From IMG/VR virus record IMGVR_UViG_2574180358_000007: DNA of 12,024 bases, one strand, 5' to 3'. This document shows positions 11,550-11,763 of this stretch, piece after piece (position 1 is the first letter of the stretch; every line of letters begins with the position of its first letter). Made by a program: the position numbers and the translations under genes. Source of the stretch: a virus (Duplodnaviria; Heunggongvirae; Uroviricota; Caudoviricetes). The notes below the pieces were generated by a model. That model was given only the letters and a program-made list of their open reading frames with translations. It had not been told where the DNA came from and ran no database searches.

Positions 11550-11763
11550 TCTCAATCCTTATCTGCGTAGGCGCAGAAAACAAGCTCACACATATAAGTC
11601 TTTTCTACGGGACAAAATGCAATGTGTTGCGGTTTTGTGTTGCTGGACTGAGTTTATCAAGGTTAAATACACTGGATCAACATACAGTAAGTTAATGACG
11701 GTAAAGCATACAAACTCGATACAACTTACTGATTTTAAAATGATTTAACGGTAATTCATTGAA

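Follow-up and report, generated by a model that had tools for sequence, protein, structure and literature searches.

The window analysed here is a stretch of viral DNA of 12,024 nt. At its right-hand end, a gene for a tyrosine integrase of 465 aa (10152..11549, − strand) stands divergently to the ferredoxin gene yfhL, whose ORF is intact (11764-12024, + strand, 86 aa). The integrase is of the type carried by Serratia phage vB_SspS_OS31 (MT843276, hereafter OS31). Between the integrase ATG at 11549 (− strand) and the yfhL ATG at 11764 lies a gap of 214 bp (11550-11763), in line with the distance of about 215 bp that an earlier reading of this DNA (hereafter the original prediction) had given. 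The naming of the flanking ferredoxin gene was likewise upheld, as its product passes the NCBIfam equivalog model NF033683 YfhL with 135 bits against a cutoff of 86 bits. Neither a tRNA nor a tmRNA gene had been seen between integrase and yfhL, and ARAGORN indeed found 0 such genes in the whole window. An Rfam search of positions 9900-12024 gave 0 matches, even at E ≤ 1, and there is no sign of a small RNA at the junction.

The integrase was recognised by a match to PF00589 (29.9 bits against a cutoff of 27.1), which is marginal though above threshold, and by a match to phrog_1 with E = 2.9e-26. One reference translation with stop codons was left out of the integrase alignment; across 11 homologues the candidate catalytic residues R268, K301/K304, R386, H416/H417 and Y429 were invariant. 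The Pfam match spans only the first two-thirds of the catalytic domain. At residues ~380-387 (window 10390-10410), where HxxR is usual, the invariant sequence is FNTMCRKF (NTMCR); the box II histidine is apparently missing, and an insertion of ~25 residues rich in Gly and Lys lies just before. A match to the arm-binding family PF13356 (Arm-DNA-bind_3) was sub-threshold, with 13.6 bits (E = 0.075) for this integrase and 17.4 bits for that of OS31 against a cutoff of 27. A sequence search of the PDB returned no match to the integrase at E ≤ 0.1, and the NCBIfam scan assigned it to no family.

Convergent with the integrase gene, and overlapping its stop codon, is an ORF for a helix-turn-helix protein of 66 aa (9955..10155, + strand), a candidate excisionase/RDF. 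Its Pfam HTH_17 match reached 25.8 bits, just under the 27-bit cutoff, and its match to TIGR01764 16.6 bits against a cutoff of 28.8. It also matched PHROG 4745, ‘DNA binding protein’, with E = 4e-27 and, more weakly, the excisionase PHROGs 66 and 1553. The OS31 gene at the same position is annotated as an excisionase. The 66-aa protein is a likely candidate for the excisionase.

The original prediction had called for comparison with an island-free yfhL locus, and alignment of the window to E. coli K-12, where the order is yfhH, a 55-bp spacer, yfhL, shoB, ohsC and acpS, located the junction at the point where the match switches, position 11794. From 11794 to 12024 the two sequences are identical (231/231, of which 11812-12024 contributes 213/213). 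The first ten codons of yfhL (11764-11793) agree at 20/30 positions, and the gap agrees at 53/214, as expected of random sequence. Downstream of yfhL, shoB, acpS and pdxJ follow in their native order, so the element does not extend past yfhL and stops there as the original prediction had implied.

The left end of the element was examined in two E. coli strains, ECZP248 and L6-21, whose genomes include the entire window at 100% identity, that of ECZP248 with two extra IS copies. In both, exactly two direct copies of an 18-bp sequence, AATTGTGATATGTGTGAA, flank the element. One is at 11794..11811 (+ strand), where it occurs as a single copy in the window; the other, preceded by the native yfhL 5′ end, lies ~0.58 kb to the left and ends 583 nt left of position 1, so the partner att copy is to the left of the window as had been foreseen. 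At the attL of ECZP248, identity to K-12 is 200/200 through yfhL nt 48, after which phage DNA begins (ATTAAATAAAAATG...). The attL of strain 97-3250 is the same, with native yfhL nt 1-48 followed by phage DNA. The 18-bp sequence is identical in attL, attR and the K-12 attB and is the only sequence common to all three, while its flanks switch partners between them; by this exchange of flanks the crossover is placed within the 11794-11811 core. The core lies 30-48 nt inside the yfhL ORF (yfhL nt 31-48) and comprises codons 11-16 (NCDMCE), part of the first CxxCxxC Fe-S cluster-binding motif of the ferredoxin. The duplicated sequence is yfhL coding DNA, and the element does not belong to the tRNA/tmRNA-targeting class. 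The tyrosine integrase would accordingly recombine AATTGTGATATGTGTGAA within yfhL, and the window very probably ends at the attR of a degraded prophage inserted in the 5′ coding region of this gene.

A right-hand junction at yfhL had been predicted correctly, but was misplaced by 30-48 nt, and the outcome that the original prediction had itself named as refuting, a junction located elsewhere, applies in a mild form. The attachment site had been put inside the gap, as an intergenic or small-RNA-associated attB to which an inverted repeat at 11563-11576 would belong as part of att or as an operator. The junction is indeed free of tRNA genes and the repeat is physically present. Nothing corresponding to the gap, however, turned up in 5266 island-free genomes or at the element's left end, where no direct repeat of 11556-11763 is found; the gap matches nothing in Rfam, and the repeat is unconserved and at chance level. 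The three-way comparison of attL, attR and attB, whose sole common sequence lies within yfhL, rules out a site in the gap, to which we attach very little probability.

The inverted repeat itself (CTGCG-TAGG-CGCAG) is present at exactly 11563..11576, with a stem extendable to 6 bp at 11562-11577, but a role as operator or part of att was rejected. Inverted repeats with a 5-bp stem and a loop of 3-8 nt number 3 in the gap, compared with 1.7 ± 1.5 in dinucleotide shuffles (at least 3 in 26% of shuffles) and a whole-window mean of 2.0 per 214 bp. No part of the gap is less conserved than the one around the repeat, which decays already among relatives with 94% identical integrases and is replaced by unrelated sequence in others. 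RNAalifold on 12 relatives predicted no conserved base pair at the repeat, which is probably not functional.

Further evidence on the nature of the gap came from surveying complete genomes of E. coli. Of these, 5426/5426 had a match to the yfhL portion of the window, and only 160 also to the integrase and gap. The 244 bases 11550-11793, that is, the gap together with the first 30 nt of yfhL, occurred in 160/5426 genomes, once each, always chromosomal at yfhL and in one-to-one coincidence with this integrase; at the sensitivity of blastn they were not found in the remaining 5266 island-free genomes. Since this segment is present in exactly those 160 genomes and nowhere else, the gap is element DNA rather than native upstream sequence, and 11550..11793 was annotated as the phage-derived P′ arm of attR. 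A search for relatives with one genome per species yielded 17 loci, and in 17/17 the related integrase (58-98% aa identity) lies ~215 bp from, and divergent to, a yfhL homologue. Hosts were Kluyvera, Citrobacter, Raoultella, Shimwellia, Sodalis, Symbiopectobacterium, Pantoea, Serratia, Providencia, Erwinia, Shigella and E. coli. A phage collection searched at both the DNA and the protein level yielded OS31 as its only relative and contained no sequenced E. coli phage with this integrase.

These data also bear on the proposal that the gap is native yfhL upstream DNA and that the integrase belongs to another element ending elsewhere, for which nothing was found in support beyond its having been raised in the original prediction. 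The native spacer in K-12 is 55 bp long and unrelated to the gap, no counterpart of the gap was found in island-free strains, gap and integrase co-occur one-to-one in the 160 genomes, and the int-gap-yfhL arrangement is shared by 17 other species and by the OS31 DNA obtained from virions. The genome survey and the base-by-base comparison with K-12 rule this proposal out, and we give it next to no credence at all.

The prophage at whose attR the window ends is a deletion remnant of ~12.5 kb; the intact form, found in 97-3250 with the same integrase, is ~41 kb. Still present in the remnant are the replication module, int and the putative xis; it lacks the repressor, the lysis genes, the head genes and most of the tail genes of the 97-3250 prophage. 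Its recombination system may no longer be active. Additional copies of IS903B and/or IS1A, absent from the window, are found in the ECZP248 and L6-21 remnants. According to the RefSeq annotation of an identical sequence, a gene for a TIR-domain protein (6490-7251, + strand) lies between the DNA polymerase gene and that of an ANR-family regulator; in 97-3250 the ANR gene directly follows the polymerase gene. The TIR gene has the look of an accessory gene that was inserted here, with a possible role in defence. Next to attL, beside tail-fibre fragments, is a heptosyltransferase-like gene of glycosyltransferase family 9 (1-1180, − strand), at the position of which 97-3250 has different genes; it may be a lysogenic-conversion gene.

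Insertion at the core would sever yfhL from its promoter, its ribosome-binding site and its first ten codons. Beside the core, the phage genome has a version of codons 1-10 of its own together with an upstream region, and these would yield a full-length hybrid yfhL upon integration. Integration rebuilds a full-length hybrid ORF and leaves the native 5′ end stranded at attL, which retains the native promoter and codons 1-16 and runs to a stop after two phage codons, giving an 18-codon stub. The hybrid in the window consists of the phage-borne substitute for codons 1-10 (11764..11793, + strand; the native peptide is MALLITKKCI), the core and the host-derived remainder (11812..12024, + strand). 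Among the relatives, the phage-borne codons show 311 synonymous and 136 non-synonymous codon differences, the latter being conservative (A/S/T or K/R). With variation mostly synonymous and replacements conservative, it seems to be the protein, and not a DNA-binding site, that is under selection. A substitute yfhL 5′ end is also present in virion-derived OS31 DNA, where it adjoins the annotated att; judged by the 17 related loci and by OS31, it is a trait of the phage lineage and not an accident of one strain.

Because the replaced end is the 5′ end of the gene, the phage must supply a promoter and a translation start as well. In an alternative reading, integration silences yfhL, the hybrid ORF is unexpressed and the phage 5′ stretch serves as extended att homology for core binding by the integrase. 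Consistent with silencing, yfhL is listed among the E. coli genes disrupted by prophage integration (Bobay et al. 2013, PMC3603311), the native promoter stays behind at attL, the built-in consensus scan of the gap found no plus-strand promoter for the hybrid gene, and the ribosome-binding site ahead of the hybrid ATG is weak. That of native yfhL is weak too, however, the ORF is intact in 18/18 loci, the hybrid passes the YfhL equivalog model, and the ten phage-borne codons vary mainly at synonymous positions. We therefore regard silencing as unlikely and retain the reading of the 5′ stretch as a substitute gene end.

To characterise the gap, 18 gaps of related loci were aligned, and near-invariant blocks were found amid freely diverged flanks. 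Nearest to the integrase gene is its Shine-Dalgarno sequence AAGGA (11556..11560, − strand), 6 nt before the ATG and kept as AAGGA or AGGA in the relatives. It is followed by an inverted arm-type-like site, ATGTGTGAGC (11584..11593, − strand), whose plus-strand block GCTCACACAT is near-invariant in the 18 loci. Two arm-type sites in direct repeat, both TGTGTTGC, come next: P′1 (11623..11630, + strand), conserved in all relatives, and P′2 (11636..11643, + strand), 13 bp after P′1. The motif TGTGTTRC is enriched, with 5 occurrences in the window against 0.81 expected, 4/5 of them within 11428-11643. Further copies of it at 11428-11435 (− strand) and 11530-11537 (+ strand) fall inside the first 40 codons of int and are conserved in OS31; the array of arm sites may extend into the int coding sequence, or this conservation may reflect coding constraint. 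Closer to yfhL, a site matching the IHF consensus (AATCAGTAAGTTG compared with WATCAANNNNTTR; 11722..11734, − strand) has at most one mismatch in the same alignment column of 17/18 loci, and a weaker IHF-like site (11752..11764, − strand) has at most one mismatch in the same column of 11/18.

The opposite arm, which lies outside the window, was read from the E. coli prophages. Their P arm carries ATGTGTTAT/ATGTGTTGT, as two direct copies, at +41 and +53 from the core and an inverted TTTGTGTTGC at +97, and the P arm of OS31 has an inverted copy at +99 with degenerate copies at the other two positions. By the arrangement of these motifs the gap is assigned as the P′ arm of a lambda-type attP, on which the TGTGTTGC-type motifs, including an inverted one, would most likely assemble the intasome together with the one or two sequences that match the IHF consensus. 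In native K-12 DNA, TTTGTGTTGTTTTG (2962-2975 of the extracted K-12 segment), ~30 nt before the yfhL ATG, resembles the phage arm-type motif. The arm-like TTTGTGTTG in this K-12 region was considered as a trace of an ancient capture of host DNA, but local alignment with the gap was not significant (score 19 against 15.4 ± 2.0 for shuffles, p ~ 0.08), and the resemblance is probably a coincidence.

The integrase gene is the last one at this end of the element and is oriented away from attR, which leaves the gap as the place where the int promoter must be. The minus-strand matches of the built-in promoter scan were discarded as irrelevant, since they start at or within the int coding sequence. 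A scan with a sigma-70 position weight matrix (PWM), built without a curated file, gave as its top minus-strand score a predicted leftward int promoter at 11651..11680 (− strand), with a −35 element TTGATC (11680-11675), an 18-nt spacer and a −10 element TAAACT (11656-11651). This promoter falls in the same alignment column in 13/18 loci, with scores of 8-12 bits. A possible rightward promoter, with a −10 element TACACT at 11668-11673, is weaker and less conserved than the leftward one.

Both promoters overlap a predicted LexA (SOS) box, CACTGGATCAACATACAGTA, a 20-bp palindrome of the form CTG-N10-CAG at 11670..11689 that closes one of the near-invariant blocks, the overlap with the leftward promoter being at its −35 element. 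The box scored 18.2 bits with a LexA PWM derived, likewise without a curated file, from 23 E. coli operators, which themselves score 12.3-27.2 bits with a median of 19.9; its sequence has the operator form and its score falls in the range of known operators. The second-best site in the 12-kb window reached 11.2 bits. The best LexA site is at the same position in 18/18 related gaps, and in 15/18 its score lies beyond the 99th percentile obtained with random 285-bp segments. Of the two halves, the left one (TA[C/T]ACTG) is invariant, and 7 relatives have the perfect palindrome CTGT-N8-ACAG. In 7/18 relatives the right half is degraded to CAC, CAA or CCG, which weakens the case for LexA. A second LexA box, CTGTACATAATTACAG, is present in the P arm of the intact prophage of 97-3250, and OS31 also has one in its P arm, where the published annotation places it ahead of a dinI-like gene. 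The P-arm box, ~185 nt away from the core, precedes an outward-facing gene (dinI-like in OS31) and is located at ~12110-12135 (− strand) of the segment extracted from 97-3250 and at 1817-1838 of that from OS31; in the circular phage, attP would have an SOS box on either side. Three overlapping sub-threshold LexA-like matches of 9-11 bits at 245-316, in the coding region of the glycosyltransferase gene, are probably chance matches in AT-rich DNA.

Given the overlap of the box with the −35 element of int, we propose control of int by host LexA. LexA would repress synthesis of the integrase, and possibly of the hybrid yfhL too, and the SOS response would release it. On balance we favour the prediction that int is repressed by host LexA in the lysogen and released on SOS induction. 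The CTG-N10-CAG sequence might instead be a promoter element or be bound by Int, Xis, Fis or some other recombination protein, a substantial possibility even if we lean against it. Such a role would fit an invariant left half beside a right half decayed in 7/18 relatives, the resemblance of TACACT (11668-11673) to a plus-strand −10 element and its score as such, and the accessory-protein sites expected inside an attP arm. It accounts less readily for a score close to the median of bona fide operators and far above the rest of the 12 kb, for the perfect palindrome in 7 relatives and for the LexA box on the opposite arm of both the intact E. coli prophage and OS31. More doubtful than LexA control of int is the extension of that reading in which the single operator at 11670-11689 would gate both int (leftward) and the hybrid ferredoxin gene (rightward), in place of the native promoter. 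If this were true, ~3% of complete E. coli genomes and many lysogens of other Enterobacterales would have a core-genome Fe-S ferredoxin rewired into the SOS regulon, and the supply of integrase for excision would depend directly on LexA cleavage.

For annotation, the boundary of the island belongs 30-48 nt inside yfhL and not in the intergenic gap, and the yfhL gene of a lysogen should be described as a phage-host hybrid, neither disrupted nor purely native. The locus offers a clean case of a phage that targets the codons of a conserved metal-binding motif, at the cost of carrying a replacement 5′ gene end and expression signals. Predicted LexA control of int, possibly also of yfhL, would be a modest addition to what couples SOS induction to excision, if true.

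Among known systems, OS31 is the closest. Its integrase is 76% identical (aa) to ours over residues 1-464, and it shares the layout of divergent int, ~215-bp gap and substitute yfhL 5′ end, with arm motifs and a LexA-like box at the same positions as in the E. coli element. The OS31 att, reported as a 23-bp direct repeat, TCGCACATGTCGCAGTTGATGCA, inside a host 4Fe-4S ferredoxin gene, lies as here over the CINCDMCE codons, and the cores overlap at yfhL nt 31-47; OS31 was sequenced from induced particles, and many prophages were found in homologous ferredoxin genes (Bujak et al. 2020, PMC7556043). On the basis of full-length homology and the shared att, our integrase is an OS31-type, yfhL-targeting member. 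The two systems differ in host (Serratia for OS31), in the length of the identity block (23 bp in OS31, 18 bp here) and in the rest of the phage, OS31 being a lambdoid HK97-like siphovirus and the E. coli element one with a replication module of DNA polymerase, DUF2800, DUF2815 and VRR-NUC genes. Bujak et al. make no mention of the substitute 5′ end, of arm sites or of a LexA box in the P′ arm (PMC7556043).

In E. coli itself, Stx2b prophages have been described in yfhL, with the gene presented as a “newly identified” site of insertion (PMC10675304, PMC12029490). Together with the listing of disrupted genes cited above, these reports concern the same locus in the same host species and name only the gene, whereas here the ORF is seen to be rebuilt. 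A broader literature search for yfhL with att or integrase returned nothing additional. Integration at yfhL was thus already known and the junction is of a known kind; the newer points are descriptive, namely the hybrid gene, the map of arm sites and the predicted SOS box.

Phage 21 and the element e14, both inserted in icd, reportedly keep the ORF intact by means of a diverged, phage-borne gene end, an observation said to go back to Campbell and colleagues and to Hill et al. in 1989. The yfhL insertion is of this gene-end-replacing type: it lies inside a conserved protein-coding gene, brings a diverged copy of the gene end and leaves the ORF intact. In icd it is the 3′ end that is replaced, in yfhL the 5′ end. 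Compared with lambda, the yfhL system has a tyrosine recombinase with a catalytic domain, a short shared core with exchanged flanks, repeated arm-type motifs in both arms, sequences matching the IHF consensus and a candidate helix-turn-helix RDF. Unlike in lambda, where att is downstream of int, att here is upstream of the int 5′ end; with 465 aa the integrase exceeds that of lambda in size, its sequence is very divergent, and the target is coding sequence.

The integron integrase gene intI is reportedly repressed by LexA, a finding attributed to Guerin and co-workers in 2009. The arrangement predicted at yfhL is alike in that a LexA box overlaps the promoter of the recombinase gene, which adjoins the recombination site and diverges from a promoter directed outward. 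For integron integrases, such control by LexA of a tyrosine recombinase gene beside its recombination site is known (PMC3948777); at yfhL, the gene predicted to be under such control encodes a phage integrase and not an integron integrase.
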